This document shows positions 1 through 42,216 of a stretch of 60,028 nt of DNA, one piece after another. A program made the position numbers and the translations under genes. How positions within the stretch are numbered: the first letter of the stretch is position 1; every line of letters starts with the position of its first letter. Where the stretch lies: the NCBI GenBank assembly GCA_964358175.1, contig CAYHOI010000001.1, forward strand, positions 1 to 60,028, in the 5' to 3' direction. The notes under the pieces are model-generated. The model was not told the DNA's origin. It made no database searches and worked only from the letters and a program-made list of their open reading frames with translations. This stretch comes from an uncultured Candidatus Marinamargulisbacteria bacterium. GTDB lineage: Bacteria; Margulisbacteria; Riflemargulisbacteria; GWF2-35-9.

Positions 1-3000
1 AATAATACGTCCTTAAACTATGGACTCCCATGGAAACCTAGCTTCTCGCAGTTGGGAGAAGGCACCAATGATATCACCTATGTGATCAGCGATAATGCCG
101 GCAATGTATCAAGCGCGTGGGTGTGTAAGATCCTGAGGGACAGCTTGCCGCCTACCTGGTCGCCACTATCGGCTCCAGCCTCCTTTAATCTCTGGTATCG
201 CGTAACGCCGGATATGGTTACCATGGATATCGATTTTGCCGATCCGAGTATCGCGCATTCGGGTATTCAGCAGCTTGCGTATCGGGTGTCGAACAATGGG
301 GGGCTGTCGCTGTCAGTCTGGAAAACGATTACCAGTGGTGTAATCCTGGACAAGTATACGAAGGATTGGCTGGTTGACTGGAGCCTTTTGGGCAATGGCA
401 CCAATGATATTCTGGTTGGGGTGCTGGATCGGGCTGGCAATGGGGCGACCTACACAGTTCGCTCAATCCTGAAAGATACCCAAAAGCCGTCATTCAATTA
501 TACGGCAGGTGTCGGGTACAACAAATGGTATCATTCCATCCCCCAAAATTTGCTTCAAATTCCCATTACACTTGAGGATGCGGGCGGTTCACTCCTTGCG
601 GGCTACTCGTGGGGATTTATAAATTCGACGACGGCCAACGAGTACAATGTGGACAACAACATTAACCAGTTGACAATGAGAACGACGATCAACTTGGATG
701 AGAACTGGATTCTCAATGGAACAAATAATATTTTTATCATCATAAGTGATAACGCGGGCAATCAAATCACGTTTAACGCATTTAATCTCTTAAATGATGA
801 TACCACTCCCGATTTTATGCCAATTCCGGTTGCCTCATATAATTATTGGACGAGAACAATCCCTTCATGGCTGAGCGTTCCGGTGACGCCACTTTTTACG
901 GATGCGGGAGGGTCACTTCTGGCGACCGTGAATATCACACTGATGACGACAGGCGCAACGACGACTTATTCTCTTGTACTGTCGACGAACCAAGTTGCCA
1001 CCTACGACACCCCATTTGTCCTGACATGGAACCTGCTTGGTAACGGTACAAATAATATTTATATAAAACTGATCGACGGTACGGGGACAGCCACAGAGAA
1101 TCGATGGTTTTTTGTACTGAAGGATGAGATACCTCCTCAGATAAAAGCACAGATAATCTCCACGGATGCAAGGTACATGAGCTGGCTCAATAGTTCCGGA
1201 AATCTCTTTAATGATTTAGCCATTAGCGTCACCGATAATGGCTATTCCCTGTTGGATGCTTTTGTGTGCGTGGTGAGCAATAATCGAAGCGATGCGTGGG
1301 TGAGTCCGCATGTTCTTGCGACACAGATCAATCGCACATCATACCCTGTTGACGGAGGGATTAACATTAACTGGGAAACCCTGAGTAACGGCACCAATGA
1401 CATCTTCTTTGTCGCGAGCGATAACGCGGGCTGGGTGGTGACGAGCTCGGTGTTTTTTCACATTCTCAAAGACGTGGTTCCTCCAATAATTTATGTGACG
1501 ATAAATACGGGTGCTACCAAAAACTTTGGCGCGTGGCACGCAACCGCGCCTCCTTGGCTGAACAGAGCTTCTGTGGATGCCTACGACACGGGTTACTCGA
1601 ATATCTTGTCTATTTCCTATCGGATTTTGAGGCAGAAGGATAATACGTACTCCCCGTGGCAGGCGGTGACCACGAATTACAAACAACCAACCTGGAACAG
1701 AGGCATTAGCGTAGACTGGCTTCTTCTTTTCAACGGAACCAATGATGTCTTTGTCGAGGTGAAAGACAGCGCGAACAATGTGAATAGCGTCACCTACTCG
1801 TTTTCGTTACTCAAAGATACCGTGAGTCCCAGCATCGTCATCGGGAGTGCCGTGAGCGGTTATACTACGCAAAACTGGTATCGCTCAGAGACTGCGCCTG
1901 CGTTTCTGCAAAGCGTGCAGGTAACGGTCTCGGACACGGGCAGTTCGAATATCAACCAGCTGGAATACGGGGTGAGCGCGAACGACGCGGGATGGAACGC
2001 GATCTCGTGGAATATTCTCGTGAGCGCGTCTCGCATTCAGACGACTGGAAACTGGGCGGTCTCTTGGGGCAGTCTGGCGAATGGGACGAATGATATTCTC
2101 GTTCGGGTCAGCGACAATGCGGGTTGGGTGGTCACCAGCGGGGTGCTGTTCAGGGTACTCAAAGATGATGTGGTTCCATCCTTTTCGTTGATAACACCCG
2201 TGGCCTCTTTCAATGCATGGTACAGGCAGGCACCCGACTGGTTCACATGGATCAGCGTAGACGCTTCGGATAGCGGTCATTCTACCATCGCCACGTTCAG
2301 CTATCAGGTCACTCGCCTGGTGGATGGTTCGGTGAGTGTCTGGCAAACCATTACCTCAAATTATCAAAAAAACATATATTCTGCCGGAGTCTCCCTTGAT
2401 TGGAATCTGCTTAGTAATGGAAGTAACGATATCACGTTTCGCGTGCAAGACCTTGCGGGAAACACGACACAAAACACGGCCTTCACGGTTCTCAAAGATG
2501 TGAACAGACCCAGCATCAACCTCGGAGAAACTTCTGTAGATGCCAAATTTTCTGCCTGGTATCGCCTGTCGCCGGCGTGGGCAGATTCAATACAGGTTAC
2601 CTTTAATGATACAGGTAGCTCCAATATCTCGGGGATTGATTACGGGGTGAGCTGGAATGGATCCCCTGCGGTCTGGCGCGTGATTACCTCAGCTTCTTCG
2701 GCAAGCCAGCACGGAGCTTGGAACCTTTTGTGGACAGATTTGCAGGACGGGACGAATGATGTTCTCGTTCGCGTGAGCGATAATGCGGGGTGGGTCGTCA
2801 CGAGCGCAGTCCTCTTTCGCGTAAAGAAGGATACAATTATTCCCGCAGTCACGCTGATTACGCCCTCAATGGCAGACGATACTGCAATGTGGCACAACCG
2901 TTCACCCGGCTGGCTCAGCTCGATAAAGGCACTTGTGACGGACGATGGCGGATCCGCCATCGCTACCGTTTCGTATCGTTTGGTTACCGGAGTCGGTGGC

Positions 3001-4180
3001 AGTGGCGGAGATCTTCTGTCTTCGAACGTCAATCAGACATCGTACGCAAAACCTTGGCAGCTCCTCTGGTCAGACCTGAGTGACGGGACGAATGATGTGT
3101 ACGTACGTGTGACGGATAACGCGTTTAACGCTGTTGATCAGTATGTGTTTCATGTGAAGAAGGACGTAACGGTTCCCAGCTATGATCTGTCTTTGGTCGC
3201 ACGCAGTTATCGAAATCCATTTGCGACAGTTCCTGAGGAAATGAGCCATATTACGATCAACTTCTATGACTGGGGCGGTGCCTTTATTCGCGATATCGAT
3301 TACGCGATTTCGATCAACACTATCCTGACCGGGCCGACAATCAACTGGTACCCGATTACCTCGAACTATAACGCGTCCACATTGGATGTGCCCTGGAAAA
3401 TTGACGGCAATCGGTTTCTTAATGGAACCAGCGATGTCTACGTGAGACTCAGCGATTATGCCGGAAATGCTGTGACGAGCGATGTTTGTTTCTCGATATT
3501 CAGGTCAGAGCCTGGGCTGACCTACAATTATGAGTTGTACGATCCGGGAGCGTACACAAGCTGGTATCGAGCCCCGCAGGAGTTTATGGCAAACACAATG
3601 ATTCGGTTCTACGATGTGTCCGGTCTCACGTTGCTAAAGACCCTTCAGTACGGTGTATCCGCGGATGGGCGTGTGACGTGGAATACGATCCGCGACAACG
3701 TAAACTACATGACCTATACTACGCCCTTTACGATCATGTGGGATACGCTCATGGAGGGTACCAATGATATTCTGATCTCATTCAACAACACCGATGGAGC
3801 TCAGATGACCTCCGGCGTACTCTTCACCTTGTTTAAGGATTCCCTCGCGCCGTTGATCGCGTTTGCCATACAGGCTCCAACAGGGTTCGCCAACGCCTCC
3901 AATCACGACTGGCTGAACCATCTCACGGTGAATGTCACCGAGAACGGGTATTCGGCTTTGAAGCGTCTGGAATGGGGGAAACGAACCCATTCGGCGTGGT
4001 ATTCCTACTCAACGATCCTCAGCGTCGCGGGGCAGAAGGTGGCATCGGCTCACTACGCAGTGCCGTGGGATCAGATGGAGGAGGCCTATAATGCCCTCAT
4101 TCTCGAGGCTGAGGACAATGCGGGCAATATCACGTCCGTGAATCTCTGCGTGGTCTCCCGCGATACAATCGCCCCCTATC
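1..4180 (+). repeat. block A: about 13 tandem ~112-aa HYR/Ig-like modules
   Basis: Each module ends with (N/D/E)G(T/S)(N/S)D(I/V)-x3-5-(V/L)xDxAGN-x12-18-(L/F)(K/R/N)Dx2-3P. An example is NGTNDILVRVSDNAGWVVTSGVLFRVLKDDVVPS at nt 2080-2181. The last boundary is SRDTIAPYP at ~4155-4181. Copies are clearly diverged at the DNA level, including synonymous sites. Confidence 0.6.
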
Positions 4181-7100
4181 CGGTGATGTATGATGTGGAA
4201 AACTCCGTTCTCTACCGCGATTTCATCACGAGCCAAAACCAGACAGAAGCCATAAGCTGGGTCGACCGGGGCGACATCGGGATCGCCGGCGTGGAGAAAT
4301 GGCTCTATTACTGGGGGCAGGATCCCAATGGAACTTCCGCCACGCAACACGAGTCCGCGAGTTTGCCACCCTTCACGGTTCCCGCGGGGACGGCGGGCAA
4401 TGGCATCTACCGTCTGCGGGTGTCGCCGGTGGACAGAGCCGGCAATCAGGGGGAATGGCAGCCGGTGTACAAGTACACGTACGACTCGCAGGTTCCGGCG
4501 CGATGGTACTACACGGATCATGACGGAAGGTATTGGTATCGGAGCCTCACGGACTTGAGTGCGTCCATCGGATGGTTCGGGCGGGATGACTGGGGCTTCG
4601 CGGGAGTGAAGCGGTACCATGTCCTTCTGACCACGAACGCCAACGTGAACCCCGTAGGCGATCCCAGCTCGAAAGTGACCACGGATATGCTGGTCGCGTG
4701 GCCCACACCGAGTCTTCAGAGCGAGGTGCGACACAAAGCCAGCTTTTACTGGACGATAGCTATTGAGGATTACGCGGGAAATATCGGGGTGAATGTGGCG
4801 GGAACAACGTATGATCGGTATTCGCTCTCTTCCTTCGGGCTGGATCTCCAGCCCCCATTGCTGGACGCGATCAATGCCGGATCTCCCTACGACCTCAGAA
4901 GTGCCTATACGGGACTTGCGCTGCCCCGTGGCGAATGGACCTCAGTGGATCAGTTCTCTATCGATGTCACCCCGAGCGCGCAGGATGACGCGTCAGGTGT
5001 TTCCTATTATCAATTCAATGTGGGGGTGAGTACGCCTGATTCGGCCCAGAACTACAGCTATAGCTACCAGATGGGCAGGAAATTTACCTCGATGCAGCTT
5101 CAACCTATGGAGCAGGGCAATATCTCCAAGGTATACGTGCGGGCGATAGACTGGGTTAACGCTATTAGCACCTGGTCGGTCGCTCTCGCGACGATCAATT
5201 ATGATGGGCTACCCCCCAACAAGGCGGGGCACTTTCTGATCGGGGACGGAGAGGCTTACTCCACGGGCAATAGTCTTATCATCAGCTGGGACGAGGCCTT
5301 CGATGAGGGTGGCTCGGGGGTCACGACGTATGATGTGGTGGCATACGCGATGAGTCCCGCGGGGGTCATCGTCGCTACGGAGTCTTTCTCGCTACCCTCC
5401 GTGAGTCGGCAAATCAAGATTGGAGCACTCGGAGACTCACCTAAAATACCCTTACTCAATGACGAATACATCTATTTTGCCCGTCTGCTGGTCTGGGACA
5501 GGGTGGGATGGAATAGTGCCAAGAAGTACGGATCCAACCGGATGGACTACGCCCAGCAGACAAACGTTATCCAGATCGACCGTAAGTCGCCTTTTTCGGT
5601 GAAGAATCCGAGAGAGGACGCTCGAACAAATGATCTGGTGACCTGGAAATGGGGACAGCCCGCGGACAATCAGGGAGGCTCCACTCCCGGCTCAGGCGTG
5701 GGGCAGTACCAGATTCGGATGTACTGGAAGGATCCGGTAACGGGGCTGAAAGCCGACTATTTCTCTACCTTCAATGTAGCGGACACGACCTATGAATATC
5801 CGATTGCCCCCGGGATGGAGTTTGGTGCGGAAATCCGCGCGATCGACAATGTGGGCAATCTCGCGGACAACTGGATGGCGATCCGGGAGGGGGTGCTGGA
5901 TAGTACCCCTCCCAACAACCCGCCCGTTGCCATTTCGCGGGATAGAAGCCTGTATTCCATCTGGGCGGGAGATGGAACGGGCAACGACATCAAAGTTCCC
6001 GCCTACACGACAGGAAACGTGAACCAGTTCCAGTTCATCTGGATGCCGGGAGAAGATGATGTGGTGGGCGTGAAGGGGTATTATGTTGCGTGGGGCAAGA
6101 ATCTGGTAACCCCCAATACCTATACAGGATATACCTTCACCACCAGCCGGACGATCTCTCTCTCGATCGCGGAAACGGTGACAGCTACCTACCGGCTCTG
6201 GCTGGCTGCTACGGACTATTACAATAACACCGCCAACTGGATGGAGGCCTATCGGTACACGTACAACGGTCTGGCGACAAAAAACACTATCCGACCTCTG
6301 GCTCCGGTGCTTTCCACGCGCTACATCAGTGCGAACAATCAAGGGGTGACTGTAACGCTTACGACAAAAAACGCCTCAGGGGTGACGTTGGGTTCGTTTG
6401 ACCACTACGAGGTTCGCTTGTACAGGGCGTTCAGTGAGGCGTTTGTGACGCAGAACCAGTTCGGCAGTTCGGCGAATGTAAAGAGCGATATCTTTCTGCT
6501 GAACAGCGTGGCACTGTCGCCGAATACCCAGTATTTTATCAAATACCGAGCGTATTACGGCATATCCAATTTTACTGAATGGAGCTACGCCTCCCCTTAT
6601 CTTTTTTATGACGACGTCCGACCCCCAACCGTGAACTCGGTGCTCCTGGAAGAAGGGGAGGATATCGTGACCAGAACCTCAGGGATTGCGGTGCGCTTCT
6701 ACGCGGCGAGGGACAGTAACGATGACAATGCCAGCTACGCGGGAAGCGGAATCGATCATTATGAGACCGTGCTGTTTGATTCCCCTTCGCCGGGGGAACA
6801 GTACAGCTCAGGAGCGGTTATTCCCCTCTTGAGTCCAGCCTATACGAATACAGGGGTTAAGCTGACGCTTACAGAACCACTGGCAGACGGACACCAGTAC
6901 TGCCTCAAGGTTCGCGCGGTGGATCGCGCTGGGAACGCAGGGCCATGGAGTGAAACGAGCAATGAACTCATGGTGGATATACGCGCACCGGATGTTCCTG
7001 TCGGCATCACCAATTCGTACGTGCCCACTGACCCTTCAGGGTATACCAATGTGTTCTCGTATATCTGGAGCTGGACACCTGCCACGGATGCGGGGGGCGG

Positions 7101-10100
7101 GGGAGGTGGCTACACGAGCGGTGTCAGGCAATACCAGTATTATTACGGGTACAGTATGCAGAGGGATACAGGCGCGGAAAATACGCTGGTGCAAACCAAC
7201 GCTACCGCAGTACAGGAGTGGGCAGGCTATAACGCGCAGGGACTGAGGAACAATCAGTCCACGGGTTGGCGTGCCAAATCGACCAGCCAAGGCGGTTCGG
7301 GGGATGTGAAGTACTTCTATGTGCGAGCGCAGGACTGGGCGGGCAACTGGAGCGACTGGTCAGCTTCTCCTGCTACGACGAAGGTTGATGTTTTCGCGCC
7401 GGCACATCCGATCCCCAATCCAAGCATGAATACGGTGGTGGGGACGACCAGCATGACCTTCAGCTGGTCACCGGTTTCGGATATCGGTGGCGGGGGACTA
7501 AAGTACTACCACGCAACCCTGTATGACAAAAACAAGCTACAAGTCGCCAGTAGCCGAAATATCCCTGCGACGAGGACATCAGTGACCTTTACGGGGCTTG
7601 CCACGGACAATGCGTATGTGCTGAAGATGGATGCGGAGGATGTTTTCGGCGAGAAGATCCCAGCGTACCCCTATTTCTCGCAGGGAATGGTGCCCCGGTG
7701 GGACGCCGACCTTCTATCCGCCTGGGTGATGGTGGATGCCACGCCTCCCGCGCCTCCGAACTATATCAGAAGAAGCGTATGGGCGTTTAACACCAACACG
7801 GCGGATGATCCCCCCGGGCAGATCATGTACAGTGCCATCTTGGATTCGGTGGGATCCGCTGAGTTTGGCAACAATTTCAGGGCGGATTACGGATCGAATT
7901 ACTGCTACTACGGTGCCAATAAAGAGATGAGCGACTATCTGAGTTCCTATGAGGACAAGATCAATGCGAATCTTATTTACTACCGGAATGGGTCAGTGTC
8001 GGACGCGGAGCTGGGTGCCATTTCCTACTCTCTCGGACGTGGTGATTACACTGGAGCGCAATTGCGTCAACTGCTGGTGGATATGGCTTATCTGAAAGGC
8101 GAGGCGCATACGGATCAGTCAGGAGCCAATCCGCGCTACGCTATCAGCGACTATTATGTGAACAATTACCGACCCACGCTGAATATCCCGAATCAGGGCG
8201 GATATTATTATAACGGGGTCTTTCAAAACAGCGAGATCAATACCGTTCAGACGTACGTTAACGGGAGACTGTCGGGGTCTGAGGTCATGAACGCGCTGAA
8301 ACTCAGTGATTTTGGAAGTATTTTGAGTGACGGGAGCTCGTTTCGCGTAACGAATTTCACGCCGGGAATGAATTATGACGATTTCAGGCGCAGCTTGATT
8401 TCCTCACAGCCAAAGCTCAATGGCGTGGTTCTGGTCGGCGATCTGGTCGGCATCAGTGTCAACCGGACGCCGACCGACGGAGTGGCTGTTTTTGACCGAC
8501 TGAAGAGCAAAGGATACCTGGACGTTGCGGGTGTGATTAACCCACTATACGACTTCACGCAAGGGGATCAGGTGTCCGGTGTCAAAAAAACGACTTGGAA
8601 TATTACGAACGCGGATATCTCGAATCGGCTGAAAACAATACAGAGCGACTATCATTCAAGCGCGCTGGCATCAAGTGTGCTGAAAAAACTGTATACGGAT
8701 ATGGGCGCGCAATACGACGAATTGCGCATGGAGCTGAATACAATGCTCACGAGCAACCGTCGCGTGGCCAATCCAAATAACCTTACCACCACCCTGGCGG
8801 ATATCGTGTCGCGATCCCATGGCTATGTCTGGTTCTGGGGACGCGCCGCAGATGATGGTCTGGGCGGGAGCGGGGTATCCACTTGGGAGGTGCAGGTAAA
8901 AGAAGACGGACAGAATGAAGCTAGTCGCTCTCTTTCACTGCCCTATGACCAGCCGTGGCTCAACTGCGCGGGAAGCTATACGTCTTTCCCCGGTTTTAAT
9001 GGAAGTCCCGCGCTGAGTGTGAGCGCGTCGATGAGGCTTCGCGCGATGGACAACGCCGGAAACGCCGGCGAATGGTCGGACTGGCGGGGGGTGACGGCGA
9101 ACGGTCTGCGGGTCTGGTATCAGGCGCCTCCCGGAAACCGTTCTGTCTATGATACGGGGAGTTTGCTTGGCATTAAAAATGGTCGAAGCGATACGCAGTC
9201 CTTATGGGCACAGAATCGCGAGTTGAATCTCTTGTGGGATGGCTCGCAGATGTGGGGACCGGATCTTTTCTATGACTACAGCTCCAGCATGGGGCAGTCG
9301 GACTTGCCACAGGGGAGGACGAAATACCGCTTCCATGACGTGAATGATTCCACGATTTCGGGTGGCACGAACAGGATGTACGTGATGGCGTATAATGCGG
9401 AGAACGAGGGAACCAACGAACTGGTATACAGTCTGGATTACGATGCGTTGCCACCGGACAGACCGTCAATCAGCACTCCTTTAGCTACACAGAACGTCCC
9501 GAACAGCTACACCTTCAGCTGGTCGGGGGGAGCGGATCCGAATCCTGGTTCAGGTCTCAAGAGCTATCATGTGCAGATTGTCGATGCGGACGGAAATGTC
9601 GCGTACGAGCGAACGGACTTCACAGGGGACAGTTATCTGTTTACGGAGGGCAAGTCCGGCAAAAAGTATACCCTTCGGGTCAACGCGGTGGACAACGCCG
9701 GTCTTTCCGGTGAGATTGCGATGACGAACGCCTGGGTGGTGGTGGACAAAGACGCCCCCCCCGCCCCCGATATGCTGTGGGTCAATACCGGAAAGGTGTC
9801 GAACGGCTCGATGTGGAGCAGCAGCGCCAACTACAACGTGTGGCGGTGGGTGCTCCCCCAAGATACGGGCAGGAGCGGTCTTGCGAGCTATAATATTGCG
9901 ATTAACGAAAGCAACAAGGGCTGGCTCGAGGTCACATCGGGAATGATAGACAAGACGACGTATCTAAGCAACGCCCCGATTTTTGCGAAAATCAAATTTT
10001 CAGACAAGGCAGGCAATATCTCCGGGGAGAAGAACAGTTCATACCCGCTCAAGATCGACACCGAGGCACCGTTGATCGACTTAAGCGTGGCGGATATCAG

Positions 10101-13100
10101 AGAGCTTAACGGTATGGTGAACGATGTCTGGCAGACAAGTACGCGAAGCGTCATTTTCTCCTGGGAGCAGGCCAATAAGAACGCGGCGTCAGATGCCCTC
10201 AGCGGTGTGGTCGCGCTGGAATACTACTGGGGGCCGGAAGCCGACAAGACCTCTGGGTTTGCGATCAATACATTTGACAAGAAGGTGACGCCTGTCGGAC
10301 AGATGCCCGCGGGCGCGGAGACCATCTATTTCTTCAAAATGAGATCACAGGACAATGCCGGGAACTGGTCGCCGATGGCGACGCTGTATACCACCAAATA
10401 CGACAACTTTGTGAAATCGATTGAGGATGTGCGGCAGTCTGTGACGACAAACAGGTACTCGAATCAGCTCACGCAAAACTACAACTGGGGAAATGTGAGT
10501 GATTTAACGGGAATACAGTCCTTTGTTTTCTCCTTTTACGTTTCCGGCAATTTGCTTGACAGTATGGATGACGGGGTTCTTACGCGTGACGTGACGATAC
10601 CGTACGACAGTGCCATTTATGATTCTTCAAGTTCTCGGTTTATGGCTTCGGTGATGCTTGATAATCAGTTTTCAAGCCAAGATGTCTATGTCCGGATGCG
10701 GGTGAGAGACACCAATGGGAATGTCTCCATAGCTGGCAACAAATCCGAGAAGATGTGGCTGGATTTCACCGCGCCGAATGCGGTAGACGTCCCCACCATT
10801 GATAATGGGAGTATTATTCACGTGACCAGCAGAAATTTCGGCGTGACCTGGAACTGGACAGCCCCGAAAGACATCGGCGGGAGCGGGTTGTCCTCCTATG
10901 ACACGAAATTGCAGGTGTATTCTGACGCTCAAGCCGTATCCATCAATCCGAATGTGCCCTCGACGGTCAACAGGGCGGTCTACCCGCAAGTATTCACGGA
11001 CAACGTCTATGCATTCAGCATCAGCGCGCATGATCGTGCCGGCAATACAGGCAATATTTCTTTCGGTCAGCTCTTCGTGGTGGATACGGTTGCACCCTCC
11101 GTCAATCTTCAGCTACGAAACGCCTGTTCCGCTTACGGATGGAACCGGCCATTCAAGGAAAATATTTATTATCTGATCAGAGGCAATACTGTGGGACTAT
11201 CGATTTACATGAAGGACAAGGCCTCAGAGCAAATCGGGAATGTTGGCTCCGGCATCGCGTCAATGAAGCTTGAACTCTATGAGCTGGCGACACCGGATAC
11301 GGGTGAGTTTGCGCTGGCATCTGTTCCCACATTCAGTTTGTCAGCGAATAGTATTTGTACTTTTGGGATTCCGATGACCAGTAGCGTGATTCACACGTCT
11401 CAGAATACGCAGTTGTGGCGATACGCGCTTATTTCCGACGACATTGTGATCTCAGACAGCTATCTGTCCAGCCAGCAGTTTGTAGACCCGACCAGCAACG
11501 CGACAGCGAATTTCATTCAGATGACACTCAGCCGGAATTGGACGGGATTCTTCCGACTGTCTCTGAGCGTCAAAGATTTTGCGAACAATGAAACCTCACA
11601 AAACTATTACCTCTATTATGATCCTGTTCCTCCCTCCATTGATATGGGCTTTAGTGGCATGATCTTTCTTTCGACTAATGCGATGGTGTACATTCGCAGA
11701 TTGGATGGAGGACAGAGTGTCATACAGGAAGATGCTTCCAATGGTAGCAAATACGCAGATGAACGATCAAGGATGACCTTCTTCCCGATAGCGGGTTATC
11801 AGCTGTATGAGGTGAGCGGGGCGAATCAACAAAAACTGGGTCTCAACATCACAGGAAGCCGATATTATCCCTATTGTGAGCTTGAGCAGGGGGCGTGGGG
11901 TTCTGGTTTTATGGTACTCTCTACCAATGCCAAGTTTTATGTAAGGGTGTTTGATGAACTGAGCGAGGAAATTGGATTTTTCCAGGGAGGCGGGAATCAA
12001 CCGAATCGATCATGGGATGCCGCTGGGGACATCTTAATCTCAAGCGAATCCGGACGAATCAACGTGAATGGATACCAGCTACCTTTTGCGAAGTACGGTC
12101 TTATAGATGACTTTTACCAAAATGAGGCGACGAATCGTTTGACCCATAATCCGGAACGGAATGTAACATTCCTAGATTATGCCAGAGAGTGCTTGGAAGT
12201 ATCACTTAACGCCGATGTGGTTGATGGAACCAGATTGGTTCTAGGTGTCGCAGATATGGCCGGAAATGTGACCACCGTCAGTTCGCTACCGGTCTATCGA
12301 TCTTCGCCGATTATCTTGGTGACGGCAGATGCGTCGCTACAGTATCCTGTCCCACATTCCTATAACCGCCGCTACGGGACGCAATATTCTTGGGGGGATT
12401 ACACTTATGGTACACAGAGGGTCAGCGCAAGTTTCTATGTAGACACCGTCAACGTGTACGTATCGGCGAACATGACGGTGAGTAGCGAAGTGCACAGCCT
12501 GCGCGATGGTTTGCAACAACCCTTTTTCTTCGCACAAAATGGGGTCGAGATCAATCCGTACTCAGGACTTAGTGCCACGGGCTATAGCGTCTCAGGAAAG
12601 AGCACGATGAATTATGTTTACTGGGGGCAGTTCAGCGTGGTGACGCTCAGCACGGGTGCGCAAACCCCGCTTTTGAGCGGACAGGGAAAATACATTTCTA
12701 TCAATGTGCCCAATCGGTACGGGGACAGCGATGTATCCATTCGGGTGAGCTACAGCGTGGACGAGGATTATCCTTCGCTGACCGTAAACACCTTTTTTGT
12801 CTATCCGGCGATTCCCATCGTGAATCCGACGGTGGACAACAGACTTGGCGCGATGAGCATGACCACCAACAGGGTTGCCATTACTTCCGACGGGGTCGAT
12901 GAAATCTCCGGAATTTTTCCTTCCAGCTTTTTCGTGACACAGCTGTCTGAGTCGCTTCACAGCTTGAAAGAAGTGCTGTTTATCCGCGCCACGAACAGCC
13001 TCAGCACCCCCAACTGGATCAGCGCGAACAACGAAGGCAGTAATGGCGTATGGCTTACCGATAACGCGGGAGTGGGGCTGTCGGATACGCCTTTCCTACA

Positions 13101-16100
13101 CCGTTTACGTCAAAATGGCTTAATCACCACCGATTGGCAGGCGGGCTTTGAGGGGCTGTCCGGCACGGTGACGCTGGGTGTGAATGTAATGGATGTCATC
13201 TGGCGCGACAAGGCTGGCAACTATTCAGGCACCACGAATTTAGCGATTGTCTATGATCGTACGCCTCCTGAGCTTCTGGCGGTGAGCCTGAATGCGGACT
13301 GGGTCGATGCTGCGACGACGGTTTCGATGGTGTTCGAAAAGCCCTATCAGAGTATTCAGGGCGGAACGCCGATGCTTCCCAATGATCCGATCAATAGTTT
13401 GCATGCCTTCTACATGGATGGATATCAGGGACTCCGACTCTATTTTCGTATCAGCGATAACGCCAAGGTGAACGGATGGTTGTCAGCCGATGCCGCCGAT
13501 GTCAATACGGTTCGTGTCCAGTGGACGACAAACAACACCTACTGGCATTCGTACACGGTTAACGGGGGCAGTTTTAATGTCTATCAGCCCAGCGGGGATT
13601 TCGGGGTATTTAAGATAACCCAAAGCCATGAGATTGAGGCGCGAAGACCGGCACTGAATAATGGGGAAGCCTTTAATTATTGTTTCTTCGTAAGTGCCAG
13701 TATGATCATCAGCGATAATGCGCTTTTCGGATCAGGTATTCCGGAAATTGTGACGCAGAACCAGGCCTATGCCTTCAGAATTGATTTATTGGACTATGCG
13801 GGAAATGCTTCCCGTGCGACCGGCTCCTACACGGTGAATATCGATAATGACCGATCCAATCGCAGCGTTGAGCTGACCATCTCAGGGGACAGTACCGTCA
13901 ATACGGCCAACGCGAAGATCGTGACACAAAACAGTCATGGGGCGGGACTGCTTAACAGCGAGCTGTATACCCCGCAGGATTGTGATCCGTTTGCGGCTCC
14001 AAACGAGAAAATCTACAACGATGGCCAGATTTTCGCCAAGCTGGGAATCACTGTCAATACACTGGTCGGCAGAGAGTACGCGCTGGTTTGGACGACGATG
14101 AATCCGGTCGTACAGCCGTTGAATAAGCCCTCTTACGTGTATTATGCCTATGGGAAAATTGGCTGGGCGACCAGTAACTCAAACTTCGTTGGAACGGGTA
14201 ATTTCGCCTTCGACTTCTTTAATCCGACGCCGGATATCGGCAGAACGGGACTCAGTAGCGGTCTGCCCTACTATGCCACCAACAATGCCTTACTCACTTT
14301 GCCAACCACCGACACGGTGATTCATCTCTTCGTAGCCCCGATGGGGGTCGCGGGAAATCCGATTAACATCGATTCGGGAACATGGGCAACCATCACCATC
14401 GATCTGTCCGCTCCAATACTTTCCGGAAACAGTGCCCCCTTTTATCTGCATGATCTGGCCGGAACGACGCTGAATGCCCTGAAGGGATTGTACGTGTCCC
14501 GAAGCGTTATCGAAGGGGATTGCCCGGTTGCCCCGAGTTTTGACCCCATGGCACATTTGGATTTTCTGGGTCTCGGGAGTTACTTTTTCCAAGATGTACA
14601 CCGCTCTACGCATGTGCAATTCGGGCGTGGTGACTACGTGGATCTGCAAAGCGGTATGCCGACGAACAATACTTTTCTGCGCAAGAAGGTTTACCGCGCG
14701 GATGTGGCTGGAAGCAATGGCTATCTGTTTGAACAGCTTAGCAGTGAGCGGTACAGTAGCATTGCGAATATGATTGATACGGATCTGGCAGCCTTTGGAG
14801 AGGGTCTTTACCGATTTGATCTGTATACCAGCAACAAAGCAGGTCTGGTTACGAAATCGTCTTTTGCGGTGGTGATGGATGGCACGCCCCCGACGATCAA
14901 TCAGTTTGCCTTTGAGGTATCCGTTTCACAGGATTATGAGCCGGTTAGTGTTAACTATTATGGGAGCCAGAATATCCGAATTTCCTGGAGTGCGAGCGAT
15001 AATATGGGTGTTTCCTCCAATGGGCAGCTGACGGGGGGCGATTCGAGCGGGATATGGTTCTATGAGCTGAGGTTTGAGAATCTGACAACCCCCTCCGTAA
15101 AAGGATATGTGTTCAGTTCGCGCAACACGACGATTACTTGGGATCAAGGACTTGGACTTGCCTTTGTCCCCACCAAGGCGATTTCGACTACTTTGAATTG
15201 GCGTGATGTGGTTGGCATCATTAAACTTGGTAAAGTTCGATTCACCTTGAACGCCTACGATTATGCACTTTTGACGATTTCCCGTTCTCATGAAGTCTAT
15301 ATTGATTCCGGAAACGAGGTGCAATCCATGGTTAGCCTAGCCGACCCGCAGGAAGATAATGTGGACAACCAGCAGGATGGGGAGAGTCCCTCTGAATCCT
15401 CTCAGGGAGCCTCAGGATACTTTGATCAGACGAGCATCAATCTGGTGATTCAGTTTTTACCGACTGCGTTTGATACCACCCAGCTCAATCGTGCCTCACC
15501 GCAAAGGACTCATCTGCCGATAGAGGTCTTTCTGGTAACCCCCGGTTCCGTGGCGGCTGTTCCTATCAGCACCAGCCTTATTGTCGTGACGTACAGTAAT
15601 AGCGCGAATCTTGATGTACAGGGGGCTCCAACAGCAAATTTAGCTAATTACCGCCTGACACTGTCGGTGGTCGATACCAAGGAGTTCGTAAAAACAGGGG
15701 GCTATGAAGGACCGGTGACGCTCTCCTATAAGATTGTGGATGGAGCGGGATATCGATCCGCAATGACAAGCATTTTTACAAGGGTGACGATCGATATGTC
15801 CGCGCCTACAGGGAGCTATGGTTTTCATGAGGGGCTGAAATTTATCGGAAGCGATAATACTTATTTTCTGTACGGGGTCAGTGAGAATTTCGCCTTTGCG
15901 ACAACGACGAGTGGAACAAAAGTGTCTGCCAATTATGAGGATGCCCATTCAGGATTGTCATCGAAGCCCTATCGGTTTATGGTCAGCCTGAACAGTCTGG
16001 CCGGAGCCTATCAGGGAGTTGACAAAGACATGGGCTGGCAGGCCAGAACGTCCTCTCCGTTTGATCTGCTTTCTTCGGAAATTTCGACTTCAAACAAGTG

Positions 16101-19100
16101 GTACGCCGTCAAGCTGCGGGTTCGCAATCAAACCGGTGTGGTGGCCTATAATACGCTGAATGTGATTCTGGATACACAAACACCCAATATTTATTTCTTT
16201 GCTGTTTTGCAGGAAACCGCGAGTAACGAGTATGCGCGAAGTGCCGAAAACTTCGTGGGCAAACGGGCGACCACCATCAATTGGGGGGCAAGCGATAATG
16301 TCTTCAGCGAATCCTTCGGAAGTATTTTTGGTGTGACAGGAAACTCGCACCAGGGAATCCGGCAGTACCAGCTTTCATTTGCCACCCCGAATGTCAGAAG
16401 TATCAGCGCGGACATTTTTCCGGCGATCACAACGAACATTGTGACCGTCGGGTATACCGAGTTTGTGATCGGGGAGGGGGTTGTTCGCTATGTGATACGC
16501 GCCTTTGATTTTGCGAATAATGAAACGGTTGTGACCAAGGGCCCCTACTATTATGACTGGACAAACACCCTTCACAATCAGGTTGGCCAGATACTTGCCG
16601 TCACGGATAACACGGATGAGGATGGGGATGGGATATCGCCTGTGTCCGCCAATGGTGTTTCGGGGTATTTCGATCAGCCGACGATTAGTATTCAGTTGAT
16701 ATTAAGCACAACCGCTGATGACGCCACCCAGCTGAACTATTTGTCTGATGCGCACATTCCGGTAGAGGTATTTGCCGTGACGAACGCTGTGATGACCAGA
16801 ATTGCAGCCTCGCAAATCTGGGCGACTTATGATCACAAATTGCTGATCGACGCTCATCCGAATCTGGCGGCCTATAGCATTGCCATCACGATTAACCTAG
16901 CGGATATTGTGTCGCGGGATCGCTATCAGGGCGGAGTGACTCTATTCTTTAAGCTGATTGACGGCGTCGGGAATTTGTCGTTGACCACCAATACGCCTTT
17001 GCGTTTGACGGTGGATCTGAGCGCGCCGACCGGACAAATGCGGGTGCTATCGGGAGTGACATTTCAGGGAAGCACCAGCAACTTCGCACAATACGGGGTG
17101 AGTACGAATATGCTTTTTACCAGTGTGAATGCTGTCGCGATGGATCATCAGTATTCGGACGCACACAGCGGACTTGCGATCAGCTGGAACAAGGTGACCG
17201 TAATCCGTTATCCCCTTGAGGGAGGGGTGGGGACGGCTGTAAACCGTGACTGGTCAGATGTGAGCCAGGTCTCGATCAACAGCGTCCAAGCCATGATCTC
17301 GAACAACCTTTTTCTGGTGGAATCGGATATCCTCAATGGCGTTGGGGAAGTGGCACACTCGGCGACTTGGAATGTGGTCTTTGATACCGTGCCCCCCACG
17401 ATCAACGCAGAGGATTTTATGCTGACCTTCAACGTGCTGAGCGGAGGTTACGCGCCCTCATCCGTAAACTACCTCCAGAGTACGACACTCGACTTGGTCT
17501 GGGTGGCGACGGATAATGTTTTTGCCAGCTCTCCGAATCTGTTCGCTGTTTTAAGTCATCGGGGCGTGTACCAGTATCGCCTGTCTTTCAGTAAGGACGG
17601 TCAGACGTTTACCTCAGTCAGCGCAAATATGATGCCTGCGGTGAATAATCATCTTTATATTTCGCCGAATGAGCTACTGGGGACGATCGGGGAAGGCAGG
17701 GTATACTTCAAGCTGGAGGCTGTGGACTTTGCCGGAAATTGGAGTAGTCGGAACATAGGGCCGTATTTCATGGACTTGCAGAACACCCTGAATGAGCAGA
17801 TAGTGCGAATTGAGCCGGTAACTGCCAATAACGATAGTATGCCGGATTATTTTCAGAAGTCTCCTTTCGACGCGAGTGGCAAGAATGGTTATTTTGACCG
17901 GGTCAGTGTTGACTTTATCATTCACCTTTCGCCCAATGCGAGCGATTTGACCCAGCTGAGCTACCTTGAGGGAAGCTATATCCCCCTTGAGGTATATGTA
18001 GTGACGGACGGTGTGAAAAAGGCGCGGGTTTGGGATAGCGACATCCATGCGACCTATAACCGTGATGTCCTGCCCAGCCTTAACGCGACATCAAATCTGG
18101 CCTCGGTTCCGATTGCCGTGACCATTAACTTCAGCAATTACGTTGGGACAAGCAATTATAACGGGCGAATTCAGTTTTACTACAAGATTATTGACGGTGC
18201 GGGAAATGTTTCAGCGACAACCAATACAGATATGGCATTTTTGGATGTCACGGTAGATATGACAGCTCCGGTCGGAAACAGCCGGTTCGGGGAAGGGTTC
18301 ACGTTTGTAGGAAGCGGGAATACCTTCGGCTTGAACGGTGTGAGCGATGATGTTGCGTTTGCCAGACAACTAAGCAATCTGGTGATCAGCATGGATTATC
18401 AGGATGCTGAAAGTGGCCTTGCCATCAGCTCGAACTATTTTTCTGTATGGGAATACAGCCTTACTCATAATTATGTGACGAGCGGGAATCGTGGTTGGAC
18501 GAATGTGCCCACACTCAATCTGTCGGATATGGGAACGATTACCCAGAATCGCTGGTACAAGGTCGTTGGGTTTGCGGCTAACAATACCGGGGTGATCACG
18601 AAGGCGACGACGAGAAATGTGATTATCGATCTGGTGGATCCCGTGGTCGTGACGTTCTCCCTATCCGGAGAGCTTCAGAGCGGATCAGACTATGGCAGTA
18701 GCAGTCTCAACTTTGCGCAGGTTCAGACTCTGAATTTTGTCTGGACTGCTTCCGATAATATGTTCTCGGATCTCACGATTGGTGAGTTCAAGCAGAAAAA
18801 TCACCAAGGGATTTCCCTGTATGCCTTTCTTTACAAGGTCAACGGGATCGATTGGGTGACCCTGAACGGCTCGATTACCCCGACTGCGCAGAACGAATTT
18901 CAGGTGGATAAAACCACGGTGAATAGTCTGTTTTCAGGCAAGAAAGCCTTTTTTAAGCTGGTAGCCTATGATTTCGCGATGAACCAGTCTTCAAAGGAGT
19001 ATGGGCCTGTTTTCTTTGATTCAGGAACCGTTCTTGAGCAAGCGATATCTGCCTGTATTCTGGAAGACAAAACGGATGCCGATGACCTGGGAGGGTCACC

Positions 19101-22100
19101 GTTTGATGTTTCAGGACAGGGATACTTTGATCAATCCGTGCTTAAGATGAGGCTCCAGCTGATGGATACGGCGAATGACGTGACCCAGCTGAGCACCCTG
19201 CCTTCCGGAAATATCCCGCTGGAGGTGATGGCAACCTTTTACGGGAGTAACCGTGGTTCTCTTTACTTCTCAAAAGTCTTTCCGGGGAATTTGCAGAAAC
19301 TGTCGGCAACCTATAATTACGGTCGGTTGCCAACGATAGACGCAGCGAATAACCTGGGCGGGATCACGATAGATATTTTAACGCTGAATCTGTTCGATCA
19401 GATAGAAGGCTCGGGTTGGAATGGGGGTGTAGGTCTAAGTTTTAAATTGATTGACGGTGCGGGGAATTTATCAACCGATTGGTCCCGCGAGTTTCGTGTG
19501 ACCGTCGATGTTACCCCTCCGACGGTGGCTTTGTTGTGGGGAACGCGTGATTATTTTGTGACAGGGAACGATGAAACATTTGACCAGTTTGGATTTGGTA
19601 AAAGTTCTCAATATCCGGTGAAGTTCCCCTATGTGGGATTCAGTCGGCAGATCCAGTCTCTCAGGTTAAGCGGAAATGCTCAGGACCAGGATTCAGGGCT
19701 ACCGACAGGAGCTTATCGATATGATGTGACTCAGTTCGCCTTTTCCAACCTGAGTTCAACGGTGAATTCAGATTCAACGGGCTGGACAGCGACTCCGACC
19801 CTCAATCTGTCAGAGCGGTTCACGGGAATGATTGCTCCGAATTTCGCGTATCGGGTTGACTTGCATGCGCGCAATCAAGTGGGGCGTACGTCCATCTCGA
19901 CCAATCTGATTATTCTGGATGATGTCGCGCCCACTTTTCAGGCGATGAATCGCTCCGAACCAGTGGGGGGTGACTATTCAGCGACGAGCAAAGATCTTTA
20001 TTCGCTACAGGATGTTCTTCTGACCTGGCGGGCAAGCGACAATTTTTATGCAGAGAATGCCGGTGGCGAAGGAAACTTCTTCAACGCACGCGATCATCAG
20101 GGAGTCTATTTCTACCAGGTTTGGTATGAGAAAAATGGGGTAACGGCTTCTATAACGGAAAATATGCTGGCATATGCTGACAACGATTTCGTGGTATCGA
20201 AGGGGTATATCCGGCAAAGCATCGGCGAAGGAATCGTGACCTTCAGTATTCGAGCAACGGATTTCGCAGGCAACACCAGCGTTACCACCAGCCGCCTGAG
20301 ATTTGATTGGAGCAACACCATTAATCTTCAAATTGCTGACATGATTTCTGCGATGGACGCGACGAATAGCGATGAGGATCTGTGGGATAGAAGGCAAAGT
20401 GACAAGTGGGGCGACTTTGTTGATGATGTCTCTCCTTTTGACGCATCGGACGGACAGCTTGGGATTTTCGACCAGACGGTTATTCCCGTCCATATCCGAA
20501 TCGCTGAGAATGGATATGATATTTCTCAGATCAGCGAACTGACCCCGAATCACATCCCGTTTGAGGTCTATATTTCGCATGATGGACAGGTGCTGACGAT
20601 TAATCATGATCGAATTTGGGTGACTTATGACCGCAAAACAGATATCGAAAGCCCCTCGAACATTGCGAGCCGAAACTATTGGCTGACCGTGGATGTCGGA
20701 GAATGGGTTGGCGTTGAACCGCTCCATAGGGGTGCTTTCCAGCTTCTCGTGAAGGTCATTGACGGCGCGGGTAATCTCAGTAGCTTTGACACGAAGGAAT
20801 TCAGATTAACCGTTGACAGGACACCGCCTACGTCTGATGCTTCCGCTCCTTTTTATTTTAATGAACCGATAGGCTGGGTAACCTATAATCCCCTCTTTCT
20901 TGACGGGTATAATGGCGTGGCTTTCATCAATACGACCCATTTCAGTGCGCAGATGGTTTCCTTTAATGATGCGGAATCGGGGCTTTCAGAACAGCCCTAC
21001 TGGATGAAACTTGCTGGGGTGGGGTTCAAAGACGAAAACGAAAATCAAGCCGACAAAGGTTCTGTTCAGATAACCTGGCAGACACAGGAAGCCTTCACGG
21101 GGGTCAGTCTGAGCGAATTGGGATACCAAGGGCTGACCGGCGGTGGCGTTTTTGATCTGTTTTTTAAAGTTCGCAATAACGCGGGCATCGTGACGTACAA
21201 TCTGAATTACTTGTGTATCGATTTGCTTAAGCCGGTTCTGGTTACCTTCCAGCGCACCGAGCATATTGACGTCGATCAGGATGGCTACCTGCCCGAGGAG
21301 GATACCTATTATAACAAACAGGCAATATGGCTGACTTGGGATGCTTATGATAATCTGGGATACAGGGGCGATCAGCCGGCTGAAGTCGTTACAGGTGATC
21401 CGGATGCAATTTGGTTCTATACCCTGAGCTGGACATGCCGAAGCCTGACGGGGAATATGGTTTCCTCCGGCGATATTCTGACGCCAGGAATGCGCTTGGA
21501 TGCGAAGCAATGGTTCCTGCCTACCAGTGGGGTTTCTGTGATTGACGATGTATCCTATGGGATTTCGATCTCGGATAATCTCAAAGAGGGAAATGTTGAG
21601 TTTATTCTGGGGGCTGTGGATTACGCACTCAATGTGACAACGAAATCCATGCAGGTGGTCTTTGACTGGACGAATCGAGCAACGGCCAGTTCAAATTTTT
21701 ATTTTGTCGCGGATCAAACCGACAGTTCAACACCAGCTGACGGAGTCATCCCTGAAGCAGGCTACTTTGATCAGACAACGATGACCGTGGTCATAACGCT
21801 TGATCATGTGATTGAATTAACACAGTTATCGACCCGGAATTTGAAAGTGAATTATTCAACTGGGAATTCAGGCTCCGAACTTAGTGTAATGAATCCAGAG
21901 GATTATCGCTACAGCATCGAGGGTGTGGATGGGAAGTTTACGGTAACGATTGATTTTAATTTGGCACCTTATTTAATGACCTTGAATGTCGTTGAAGGAC
22001 AGCCAGTAAGGAGCGGGGTAGTTTCGTTAAACATTACGCTATTGGATCGAGCAGGCAACATGCCGAGTGTGCCTGCGAATATGGGGTGCAGGGTGACTGT

Positions 22101-25100
22101 GGATATGCAGTCTCCCTCTTTGGAATCGTCAGGTGTATTTGATGTTTATCTTTATCCAGACAAGGATTCGATGGGAGATGGGATTGATCCGGAGAACGGG
22201 TATCTGGACGATTCCTTGCCCTATATCACCGTGACGCTGAATAGTCGGGTTACCTCCAATGGTGCTGCGCAGATGGATCAGTGTCTCAATGTCCGGCTGT
22301 TTGATGATAGCCGGATACAGAAGGCTTCAGCGAATACTTTTGAGCTGATCTCAGAAAACAGATCCCTCATGATCGTTGTGACGATGGATAAGGGTGGATG
22401 GAGCGTTCCTCTGCAGGCTGATCAGCAGATTGCGACTCTTCCCTCGGAAAATAGCTATACGTATGAGTTTTACCTGAGAGATAAAGCGGGAAACATTTTA
22501 AGTAGAGTTGTGACGCTGAATTATGATCGGACTCCTCCTGTTTTGCGGGATCGGGCTTTTGTGTACAAAGTCGAGCCGGCTAAGGGAGAGGATCATGGTG
22601 GCGATGGAATTGATCCGCTTGCGGGATATTATGATTCGCCTTTCGCGACCGTCAACATCCAGCTGAACATCCCCAATTGGACAGTTGGATACGGGAACAG
22701 TCTGGCCTCCTCTTACAACGATGGTGTGTCAGAAAGTTATCACGGATCGGGAATTCGGAAACGACCCCTGTTTGTCAGGCTTGAGTCCCTGACTCCCTTG
22801 AATATTCCTGGGGTTTACGCAAGCGCGACTTATCCCGGCGGGCATTTCGGAGCTGAGCTGACCGCGAACCTGTTTGCTGTAGGGATTCCTCTGACGCGCG
22901 ATGCCGCGCGAATCATCGTGATGATGGCAGACCGAGCGGGGAATGTTGTGACCCTTAATGACACAAACAGGGTGACCATGGACGACAGAATGCCCTTCGG
23001 CATATCCTTCAACCTGGTGGATACGCGGGACGTGAGCGGTATCGGCATTTTTCCGGTGTACGGCTTTTTTAATCATCAGGTGATTACGTTTAACATTGAG
23101 GGTAGCCAGGTGGATAGGGGATTGTCGGGGCTTCGCGGGAACAGATTTGTTGTTTCCACGGCCAACGGAATCTGGAAGAATTACACCTATCAAAGTCGAT
23201 ATGTGGATCCAGAGCTAAAAGAACAAAATGAACCTGGGACAGACAGTCCGCTGATAGGTTCGCTACGCCTACCCACCGGAACCGTAACGGTCTGGGCAGG
23301 ACTTGTGGATCGGGCAGGGAATGTCGGGGTGATTTCTCAGCCCATTGTAGTGGATATGACCCCGCCCTCTATCAATTTATTTAGTTTGGACTTTGCCACC
23401 AACAACAAAGGTCTTCGAGGGGATATTGATTCTCACGGGGACGGCGTAGACCCCTATTATGGGTACTGGGATGAACCCAGCGTGAATATTGAGGTCGTCT
23501 CGCTCAGCTATGCCGAGGACTACCGGCGTAGCAATGACGTATTTGTGAAGGACTACAGATATACGCATGTTCCCGTGATGCATGACTTTGGGTTGGGTTG
23601 GGTGACGACCGAGAACAATATCGGACAAAGTTCCCGCGTTTTTCGTGAAATATATGTTCCGGAGGGCAATAGTCAGCCGATTGTTGTGTATGTGGCTGAT
23701 TTGGCGGGCAATGTGGTGTCTCGTCAGATTCTGGTTACGGTAGATCAGACCGTTCCCGCAGGGTTTGCCCAGATTGTTCTGGATGTTGATACAGACAGCC
23801 AGGGAGATGGCGTGGATCCTTTATATGGGTTCTTTGACAATGTCGAGGTCGGTCTGGTTATTTCAGAGAATACGGCTGATAGTAGCGGGTTTCGGGTGAA
23901 TCGCTACCTGATTCGGTCAAATTCCGCCAGGACTCTTTCCTATAATGTCCATGACTACAAAAACAAGGATAAGTCGGAGTCTTTGCACAGACCAATAGAT
24001 CTTGAGCAAGGGGATCAGGTGGCTTTCGGGCAGGATAGTTCTCAAATATTCAATTTCAAGCCTGCCAGCGAAGATGAAAAGCAGATTGAGATTGTTGCGG
24101 GAATCAGTGATTGCGCGGGGAATGTCCGGGAAGTGACGGCCTCCATTACCGTGGATACCCAGCCTCCGACCGGTGATTTTCAGGGAAAACTCATCACGGA
24201 TACCGATAGCGCGCTCGACGGCATAGATCCGCTGGAAGGGTATTATGACAGTCTTGCCGTGAGCGTACTGCTGTCTTCAAATGTTGTGGACAATATTGGG
24301 ATGAGAACCAATCGATATTTTATCAAAACAGGAGATGCCGGATTTCTGACGAGCTATAACGCTTATCCGTACGACGGCAACCATTACTTCTCAGAGGGAG
24401 CCGATGTGCCGGGTATAGGAAAGTTTGGTTCCGCGACAGGATCCATTACGGGAATTACCTATAACGCGCAGGGCGTGTACGAGGTTCATGTAGCGGTTGC
24501 GGACGGAGCCGGTAATCTTTTGGAGAAGACCGTCCGGGTGACCATCGACCTGACACAGCCATCCTCCGTTCCAATTGTTCGGCTTGCGCCATACCGCGCG
24601 GGCGGGAATCGTGTGGAGGCAGATGAGGGCTGGTATGGGAGCAATGAGGTTGATTTTTACGCGGAGTTCAGAAACGGAGCAACCGATGAATTGTCAGGAC
24701 TTCGCGATGTGCCTTACGTCGCGCGAGTGGTGACGCCCGGAACGAATCAGATTTCCTGGTTGCTTGAGCAAAGGGATCCTGCTTTCAAACAGATATGGGT
24801 TCCGGAAGACAGGAGTATTACAAAAAACAGTTCATTGTTCGTGGGACTCGTGGACCGCGCGGGGAATGTTGCGAGTGCATCTGTCCCGGTTCATGTAGAT
24901 CTGACCCCGCCGACCGGAAATTTATCTCTCATCATCCGCCCTGACAGCAAAAATGATGCCTCTCAGCTGATTCCGGAGAGTGGCTATTACAATGACAATA
25001 CAATGGACTTGCAATGGCAGATGGTTTCGGATTATTTGGGGTTAAAGAGTAGGCCGTTTCGAGTAAAGGCTAATGAGATGCCCTGGAGTGATAGCTTGAA

Positions 25101-33279: not shown

Positions 33280-33332
33280 CTTTTCTGCGATTGTTGCGGT
33301 TCGGTCTCTAATCGATTATGATGAAGGAGACA

Positions 33333-34618: not shown

Positions 34619-34629
34619 GGAGCGGTCGC

Positions 34630-37284: not shown

Positions 37285-37294
37285 TTCAAGATCC

Positions 37295-38836: not shown

Positions 38837-38854
38837 TCTGTTTTGACCTCCTTT

Positions 38855-39853: not shown

Positions 39854-39875
39854 TTTTTTCCTCCTTTTTTATCTT

Positions 39876-42209: not shown

Positions 42210-42216
42210 AAAAGGA

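Follow-up and report, generated by a model that had tools for sequence, protein, structure and literature searches.

The 60,028-nucleotide (nt) stretch analysed here, called the window, is positions 1 to 60,028 of contig CAYHOI010000001.1 (assembly GCA_964358175.1) from an uncultured Candidatus Marinamargulisbacteria bacterium, which is contig C1 of a 1.94-Mb genome in 154 contigs (G000). Margulisbacteria form an uncultured lineage that is sister to Cyanobacteria. The window opens with a giant gene, in whose product the fibronectin type III (FN3)-like modules are interrupted by a stretch of about 333 amino acids (aa), hereafter the insert. Judged by sequence comparison, the insert is a distinct, single-copy, non-FN3 module lying between two FN3-like modules. 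It is described below in an N, a middle (M) and a C block, of which the first holds one and the second two small units (U1, U2 and U3).

nt 1..31725, + strand: giant open reading frame (ORF) of 10,574 codons, a single frame with no stop before the contig start
nt 7420..7761, + strand: upstream FN3-like module, aa ~2474-2587 (Pfam fn3 match aa 2475-2552; FN3 profile match aa 2484-2552; orthologue alignment)
nt 7762..8205, + strand: insert N block, aa ~2588-2735, found in 9/9 orthologues
nt 7927-8145, + strand: unit U1 in the N block, aa 2643-2715, with a predicted helix-strand-helix-helix-hairpin order and a winged-helix-like topology
nt 8206..8604, + strand: insert M block, aa 2736-2868, missing in 3/9 orthologues and the fastest-evolving part
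nt 8248-8391, + strand: unit U2 in the M block
nt 8416-8568, + strand: unit U3 in the M block
nt 8605..8760, + strand: insert C block, aa 2869-2920, with two predicted amphipathic helices, found in 9/9 orthologues
nt 8761..9096, + strand: downstream FN3-like module, aa 2921-3032 (orthologue alignment and FN3 profile)

The original prediction, made from the letters of the window, was that a unique non-repeat stretch of about 330 aa interrupts the FN3-like modules, and an iterated FN3 profile indeed leaves a gap there. This profile recognises 14 FN3-like modules at aa 1415-3687 of the giant protein, and the largest uncovered gap in this FN3 block is aa 2553-2940 (388 aa), the other gaps measuring 142-157 aa. 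The claim that the insert has no second copy in the ORF is strengthened by our results, the best off-diagonal BLASTP matches of aa 2594-2965 having E values of 0.014-0.07 and being short or only 20-24% identical. At the level of the whole window genome, a profile built from nine orthologues of the insert gives one match at E ≤ 0.001. The strings quoted in the prediction were found at their places, with WAFNTNTADDPPGQIMY at nt 7780-7830 (aa 2594), VWFWGRAADD... at nt 8827-8892 (aa 2943) and the helix-like segment at nt 8611-8754. The proposed limits (nt 7800-8820) correctly set a stretch between two FN3-like modules and are moved here to nt ~7762-8760 (aa ~2588-2920). On the upstream side, the FN3-like module closes with a conserved PRWDxDLxSxWxxVD strand followed by a PPAPP linker. 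On the downstream side, the insert ends at ~aa 2920 because a conserved NPxSFxxTxxD...YVWxW pattern puts strand A of the next FN3 module near aa 2921; this strand starts at the conserved NPNNLTTTLADI, followed by YVWFWGRAADDGLGGSGVSTWEV and then by AMDNAGN. The WAFNTN... string, earlier taken for the start of a module, is not kept in the second family of orthologues and has no FN3 profile match.

Two other parts of the earlier description have to be tempered. The surroundings of the insert had been called periodic throughout, which is overstated: in self-BLAST, matches are dense only at aa 1-1400 and aa 4900-9300 of the giant protein, aa 1400-4900 are weakly self-similar, and aa 3700-4900, having no internal repeat, are as unique as the insert. 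A different composition had also been claimed, and this does not hold for the composition as a whole (chi-square distance rank 121 among 410 segments of 332 aa); what holds is an enrichment in Tyr (rank 27 among the 410 segments) and a depletion in Trp, with 1 Trp in 332 aa in the insert vs 2.2% elsewhere in the protein.

A six-frame search of related genomes gave a first homologue in the metagenome-assembled genome Candidatus Margulisbacteria bacterium GWF2_35_9 (G003, record MFRH01000022.1), inside a 10,929-codon frame. This is the closest named relative found, and a genome-contig scan matched GWF2_35_9 only. The window protein and that of GWF2_35_9 are collinear, with 40% identity over aa 1404-3800. 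When the insert and its flanks were used as query, the orthologous site was recovered in seven further giant frames of the same Margulisbacteria order, and the resulting 9-sequence profile matches 9 of the 12 genomes of this order, with one copy in each, and no other among the 146 genomes of the phylum. The nine module-bearing genomes span two families of the order. Three of the orthologues are complete genes:

G009:C3:90052-140979: 16,976 codons, module starting at aa 8767
G008:C3:61349-112315: 16,989 codons, module starting at aa 8760
G004:C52:54220-103533: 16,438 codons, module starting at aa 8626

In these three proteins the start of the module falls at 51.6-52.5% of the length, with an N-terminal arm of ~8,600-8,750 aa and a C-terminal arm of ~7,630-7,880 aa, and all three carry an N-terminal signal peptide and a FlgD_ig-like C-terminus. 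The G009 and G008 genes start with TTG, and a Shine-Dalgarno-like sequence precedes each of these starts. By comparison with the complete orthologues (~16,400-17,000 aa), the giant protein of the window is short of ~6,100 N-terminal residues, which are missing because the contig begins inside the gene, and its final 574 residues contain FN3 and a FlgD_ig-like C-terminal domain. In GWF2_35_9, the 10,929-codon giant frame is directly followed by another open frame, 3,271 codons long (contig MFRH01000022.1, L004-L006, nt 32778-42590), which is in a different phase and overlaps it by ~10 nt, on a contig holding 165 N; the interruption may be an artefact of assembly or masking that splits one gene of ~14,200 codons or more.

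The insert is an old and integral part of this gene: it is in frame, it has orthologues and its GC content at third codon positions (GC3) is like that of its flanks. The GC3 is 0.61 in the insert, 0.67 in the FN3 block flanking it, 0.56 in the whole giant ORF and 0.45 in the rest of the window; being near the flanking gene blocks and unlike the rest of the window, this value indicates that the insert was not recently acquired. The neighbouring genes (window 31726-60028) have a GC3 far below that of the giant ORF, in which it falls toward the 3' end.

Conservation in the homologous giant genes, proposed earlier as a check, is found at roughly the level of the neighbouring modules. Between the window protein (G000) and GWF2_35_9 (G003), the identity is 0.46 in the N block, 0.30 in the M block and 0.41 in the C block, with 0.41-0.57 in the flanking FN3 modules. 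For the congeneric pair G007 and G011, the ratio of nonsynonymous to synonymous substitution rates (dN/dS) is 0.55 in the N block, 0.60 in the M block and 0.25 in the C block, and 0.22-0.43 in the flanking FN3 modules. With dN/dS values of 0.25-0.60, the insert is, by these codon comparisons, under purifying selection. The highest-dN 100-aa window among the 5,171 aligned residues of this pair lies in the M block (dN 0.336, dS 0.725). The same pair shows a second divergence hotspot in L037 (G011:C5), at aa 3263-3367 of the 5,171-aa frame (dN 0.301, identity 0.59), which is ~1,900 residues downstream of the insert.

The M block is 133-183 aa long in six genomes from two families, whereas G002, G004 and G005 have 7-14 residues in its place; the M block of G003 carries an additional insertion of ~55 aa. 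Since the long form is present in both families, it is most simply the ancestral one. The conserved motifs of this block are YNGV, NG/HG-V-V and G-Y/S-I, with an aromatic wing in most sequences. Over the whole insert, hydrophobic patterns are conserved across the two families, whereas only three positions (G2664, L2912 and D2934) are invariant in the 9-orthologue alignment, and none of the conserved residues within it is a His, Cys, Ser or Glu.

In the C block, two helices are predicted at aa 2870-2885 and aa 2889-2918, long and with a 3-4 hydrophobic spacing. The motif (Y)DELRxNLxxFL is conserved here in the six long-form orthologues; in the three short-form orthologues the DELR motif is not kept and only a diverged helix pair is found. 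Such a pair (aa 2870-2918) could form a coiled coil or a helical bundle between copies of the fibre, so that the insert would be an oligomerisation node cross-linking the fibres at mid-length. The two long predicted helices, their conserved motif in the long forms and the low dN/dS of the C block are in agreement with this possibility. However, the helices, although placed identically in our two AlphaFold2 (AF2) runs, are modelled with a predicted local distance difference test score (pLDDT) of 31-45 only, and the pair could equally well pack intramolecularly; we consider cross-linking unlikely.

The structure predictions and profile comparisons also bear on whether the insert could be a degenerate pair of FN3 or immunoglobulin (Ig)-like modules, or a disordered linker. 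The AF2 confidence is low throughout, with a mean pLDDT of 33 for the single-sequence prediction of aa 2564-3050 and of 40.7 with the 9-orthologue alignment, where only the downstream FN3 module and aa 2665-2715 reach 50-75, and this, like the unexceptional overall composition, would suit such an explanation. Against it, hhalign comparison of the N, M and C blocks and of the whole insert with three FN3 profiles gave P ≥ 0.18, with no Pfam match, when control comparisons of FN3 with FN3 profiles from orthologous modules gave P values of 6.6e-10, 8.8e-6 and 1.1e-3. An alignment with the neighbouring FN3 modules is thus not what the profiles support. Nor is the insert a disordered stretch devoid of conservation, the 388-aa gap in FN3 profile coverage being accompanied by hydrophobic patterns kept across two families, a dN/dS below 1 and the single Trp. 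A degenerate or disordered origin is consequently very improbable to us. Foldseek comparison of the 9-orthologue AF2 model with the PDB returned FN3 domains only, all with E ≥ 0.012, and is uninformative on the insert itself.

The insert had been left without a family by the original prediction, and it still has no match in Pfam, NCBIfam or the PDB. In Pfam, the insert of the window finds no family even at E ≤ 10, and the nine orthologues scanned singly gave three unrelated matches, each in a single member (E 0.078-0.14). In NCBIfam, no family was found, the best match having an E of 0.057 and 11.5 bits vs a cut-off of 666. A sequence search of the PDB gave nothing significant, and profile searches of the PDB with the whole insert and with each block gave nothing below E 0.018; this best value, between the C block and the phage Ltp lipoprotein 4eqq, was treated as noise. 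Among 1.84 billion representative proteins, phmmer retrieved no more than three fragments, all short and near-identical. The fragment P0004 (55 aa) is identical to aa 2643-2674 of the insert, loses the match after that and returns to the reading further on (QLRQLLVD); it seems to derive from a frameshift in a read or assembly, either from the same organism or from one very close to it, and not from a distinct homologue. A word-indexed database of 5.8 billion protein clusters added nothing, either with the 9-sequence profile or with the giant protein restricted to the insert, and two scans of metagenome contigs found no relatives of the insert.

These searches concern directly the idea that the insert is a payload domain, i.e. 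an enzymatic or a binding one. Its size of ~330 aa and its single-copy status are typical of catalytic inserts, and one could imagine a protease, or a domain degrading glycans or peptidoglycan, whose divergence hides it from recognition, such domains being present in giant proteins of other uncultured bacteria (bioRxiv 10.1101/2023.11.21.568195). However, besides the lack of a family match in Pfam, NCBIfam and the PDB, no conserved constellation of catalytic residues of any enzyme class is seen across the nine orthologues. Since the only invariant residues are a Gly, a Leu and an Asp and one third of the module can be deleted, as three genomes have done, an enzymatic payload is very unlikely. 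The enzymatic half of the idea thus finds no support, and the binding half is indirectly favoured because the middle block is fast-evolving and dispensable, with no binding fold identified.

Some weak regularities are found inside the insert. A motif of the form [NH]-G-x-[VIL]-x3-[DE]-[LVF] ... h-x2-L-x3-G-[YH]-h occurs three times, once in each of U1, U2 and U3; in most sequences a hairpin containing aromatic residues comes next. By hhalign, a unit of ~40 aa may be triplicated within the insert, which is a suggestion only (P 0.012 for U1 vs U3, 0.076 and 0.16 for the other comparisons). The best-modelled part of the insert, aa 2665-2715 (pLDDT 54-60), gives together with its preceding helix the order helix-strand-helix-helix-strand-strand. 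When compared by hhalign with a 15-sequence MarR alignment taken from relatives, U1 (P 0.023) and U3 (P 0.010) align with the same helix-turn-helix (HTH) columns, at a non-significant level, and the equally non-significant PDB profile matches of the N and M blocks include MarR 5eri (E 0.12), the FtsK-gamma domain 2j5p (E 1) and the HTH regulator 2m8g (E 0.85). These hints are weak and mutually consistent, and could point to small helix-turn-helix or winged-helix-like units, as a lead and not as a classification. The likeness to winged HTH domains (MarR PF01047, FtsK gamma 2j5p) resides in the predicted order of elements in U1 and in the h-x2-L-x3-G-[YH]-h pattern with its hairpin, three times over; in the absence of a significant match (P 0.01-0.02; PDB E 0.12-1), it is a resemblance of shape at most and not a membership. 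As the context of the module is extracellular, DNA binding is implausible for such units. When run over the giant protein, scans of hydrophobic moment, Chou-Fasman propensity and Pro/Gly-free runs failed to distinguish helical regions from beta ones.

Other candidate families were tried and set aside. The SLH domain (PF00395) resembles the insert in its three helix-loop-helix units in tandem, each of ~45-57 aa and showing a G-h-h-x-G ... P pattern. Nevertheless, the Pfam SLH model has no match in the giant gene at E ≤ 1e-5, hhalign comparison with an SLH alignment from relatives gave P 0.024-0.36 over short stretches, and the TRAE-type motif, sought as G-[IV]-x-x-G-x(4-6)-F-x-P-x(3)-[IV]-[TS]-R-[AG]-E, is not in the alignment. 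For EF-hand or dockerin loops (sought as the 12-residue pattern D-x-[DN]-x-[DN]-G-x-[ILV]-x-x-x-[ED], in which residues 1, 3, 5 and 12 are the acidic ligands), the three [NH]-G-x-[VIL]-x3-[DE]-[LVF] motifs of the insert keep the Gly at 6, the hydrophobic residue at 8 and often the acid at 12, but positions 1 and 3 are Ile, Tyr or Gln and not Asp or Asn; EF-hand matches are all non-significant (7wbo, E 0.39; AIF-1, E 0.1 in one member). An intein or HINT domain was rejected as well, neither having a Pfam match, and the boundaries, ...PPAPPNYIRRSVW... on one side and RRVA followed by NPNN on the other, show neither an N-terminal Cys or Ser nor a C-terminal His-Asn followed by Cys, Ser or Thr.

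Taken together, these data lead us to favour, with a probability of about 0.5, the reading of the insert as a lineage-specific, folded, non-catalytic and mainly alpha-helical module of ~333 aa, with a conserved core and a variable exposed lobe, placed in the middle of a secreted fibre protein of ~17,000 residues in one Margulisbacteria order. We propose that the core, made of the N block and the C-terminal helix pair, would pack into a rigid helical node that connects the two arms of the fibre, the N-terminal one of ~8,700 aa and the C-terminal one of ~7,700 aa. The M block, with its two small helix-turn-helix or winged-helix-like units, would project from this node as an exposed lobe, and the lobe would most likely contact a variable partner (the surface of another cell, a polymer or another copy of the fibre) and not perform catalysis.

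Several observations weigh against this proposal. The terms helical, folded and winged-helix-like come from low-confidence predictions and from non-significant profile matches, and are to be taken as provisional. From the sequences, the fast evolution and the loss of the M block would fit a relaxed constraint equally well, the dN/dS never exceeding 1. In addition, where the complete proteins G008 and G009 are compared (48% identity across ~17,000 aligned residues), the lowest windows (26-30%, vs a median of 48%) do not fall in the insert; they lie just past its downstream FN3 module, at aa 9151-9400 of G008, which correspond roughly to aa 3033-3250 of the window protein (nt ~9100-9750).

Relaxed constraint is what would be expected if the insert were a purely structural hinge or spacer, in which the node sets the geometry or the flexibility between the arms without any binding role and the M block is unconstrained. 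The dispensability of the M block in 3 of the 9 genomes, its dN/dS and that of the N block (0.55-0.60) without positive selection, and the failure of the PDB, Pfam and Foldseek searches to find a binding fold are all consistent with such a role. On the other hand, six genomes from two families retain the M block with conserved motifs and under purifying selection, and a mere spacer would be expected to drift more freely in length and sequence. A hinge is for these reasons somewhat unlikely, in our opinion, as the whole function of the insert.

The comparison of G008 with G009 also brings in a more elaborate possibility. Their least conserved kilo-residue is the centre of the protein (37-40%), comprising the insert and the ~400 residues after it, which also speaks for a variable lobe in the reading favoured above. 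The module and these ~400 fast-evolving residues could then constitute the functional head of a protein that folds back on itself, its near-equal arms (~8,700 and ~7,700 aa) lying side by side and the node being the distal tip. This tip would display an extracellular, triple helix-turn-helix-like recognition lobe of a kind not described before, changing from one species to the next as it follows a partner cell or surface. We regard this arrangement as quite doubtful.

With respect to the genomic setting, the giant gene is followed on its 3' side by genes for a hexapeptide transferase, a J-domain protein, CheD, CheR, an HDOD protein and FliM, beyond which YmdB, RNase Y and RecA are encoded on the opposite strand. 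A similar ORF layout 3' of the giant gene is seen in G009, from the different family (L036, 1001-7415, vs window 31935-39853), a likeness judged by ORF size, order and strand only. Regarding surface proteins of the phylum, SLH proteins were found in all 21 Margulisbacteria genomes searched, most of them of ~600 aa with three tandem SLH motifs (OmpM-like), and in the window genome the SLH loci are G000:C67:8058-8558 and C47:12167-12289. This distribution suggests, as far as sequence can tell, that the outer membrane of Margulisbacteria may be SLH-tethered, like that of Cyanobacteria, Thermus and Deinococcus.

Giant bacterial adhesins, such as the RTX adhesins MpIBP, LapA and SiiE, are known to embed ligand-binding or split domains in arrays of Ig-like repeats. 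In adhesins of this type, the payload domains lie close to the distal end, and their folds are recognised ones that bind sugars, peptides or ice. The protein described here resembles them as a very long secreted fibre made of ~100-aa beta-sandwich modules, with a single-copy non-repeat module that varies between relatives; it differs from them in that the module is in the middle of the protein, is helical by prediction and has no family match, and in that no features of RTX proteins or of a type I secretion system (T1SS) were seen. Margulisbacteria are among the phyla enriched in very large proteins (bioRxiv 10.1101/2023.11.21.568195; PMC11573180). Large parts of such proteins, in Omnitrophota and others, go without domain annotation and call for structure prediction (bioRxiv 10.1101/2023.11.21.568195; PMC11573180). 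In the giants of Omnitrophota, transmembrane regions are numerous and SecA-like domains occur (bioRxiv 10.1101/2023.11.21.568195; PMC11573180), whereas the protein studied here combines a signal peptide with FN3/Ig-like arrays and a FlgD_ig-like C-terminal domain. Neither source describes the helical module (bioRxiv 10.1101/2023.11.21.568195; PMC11573180).

Giant surface proteins of uncultured bacteria are in general well known to contain single-copy domains that lack annotation, and on present evidence the insert is one more unclassified domain of this kind, with no new mechanism attached to it. According to the sequence searches, it is a module without detectable relatives outside one order of Margulisbacteria. 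What was an anonymous stretch is now a defined unit, with boundaries, nine orthologues, a conserved core, a deletable lobe and a fixed position in the middle of the protein. It thereby becomes a small expressible target (~200-380 aa), suited to solving a structure and to screening for binding, and is probably the most tractable entry point into the role of the giant protein.

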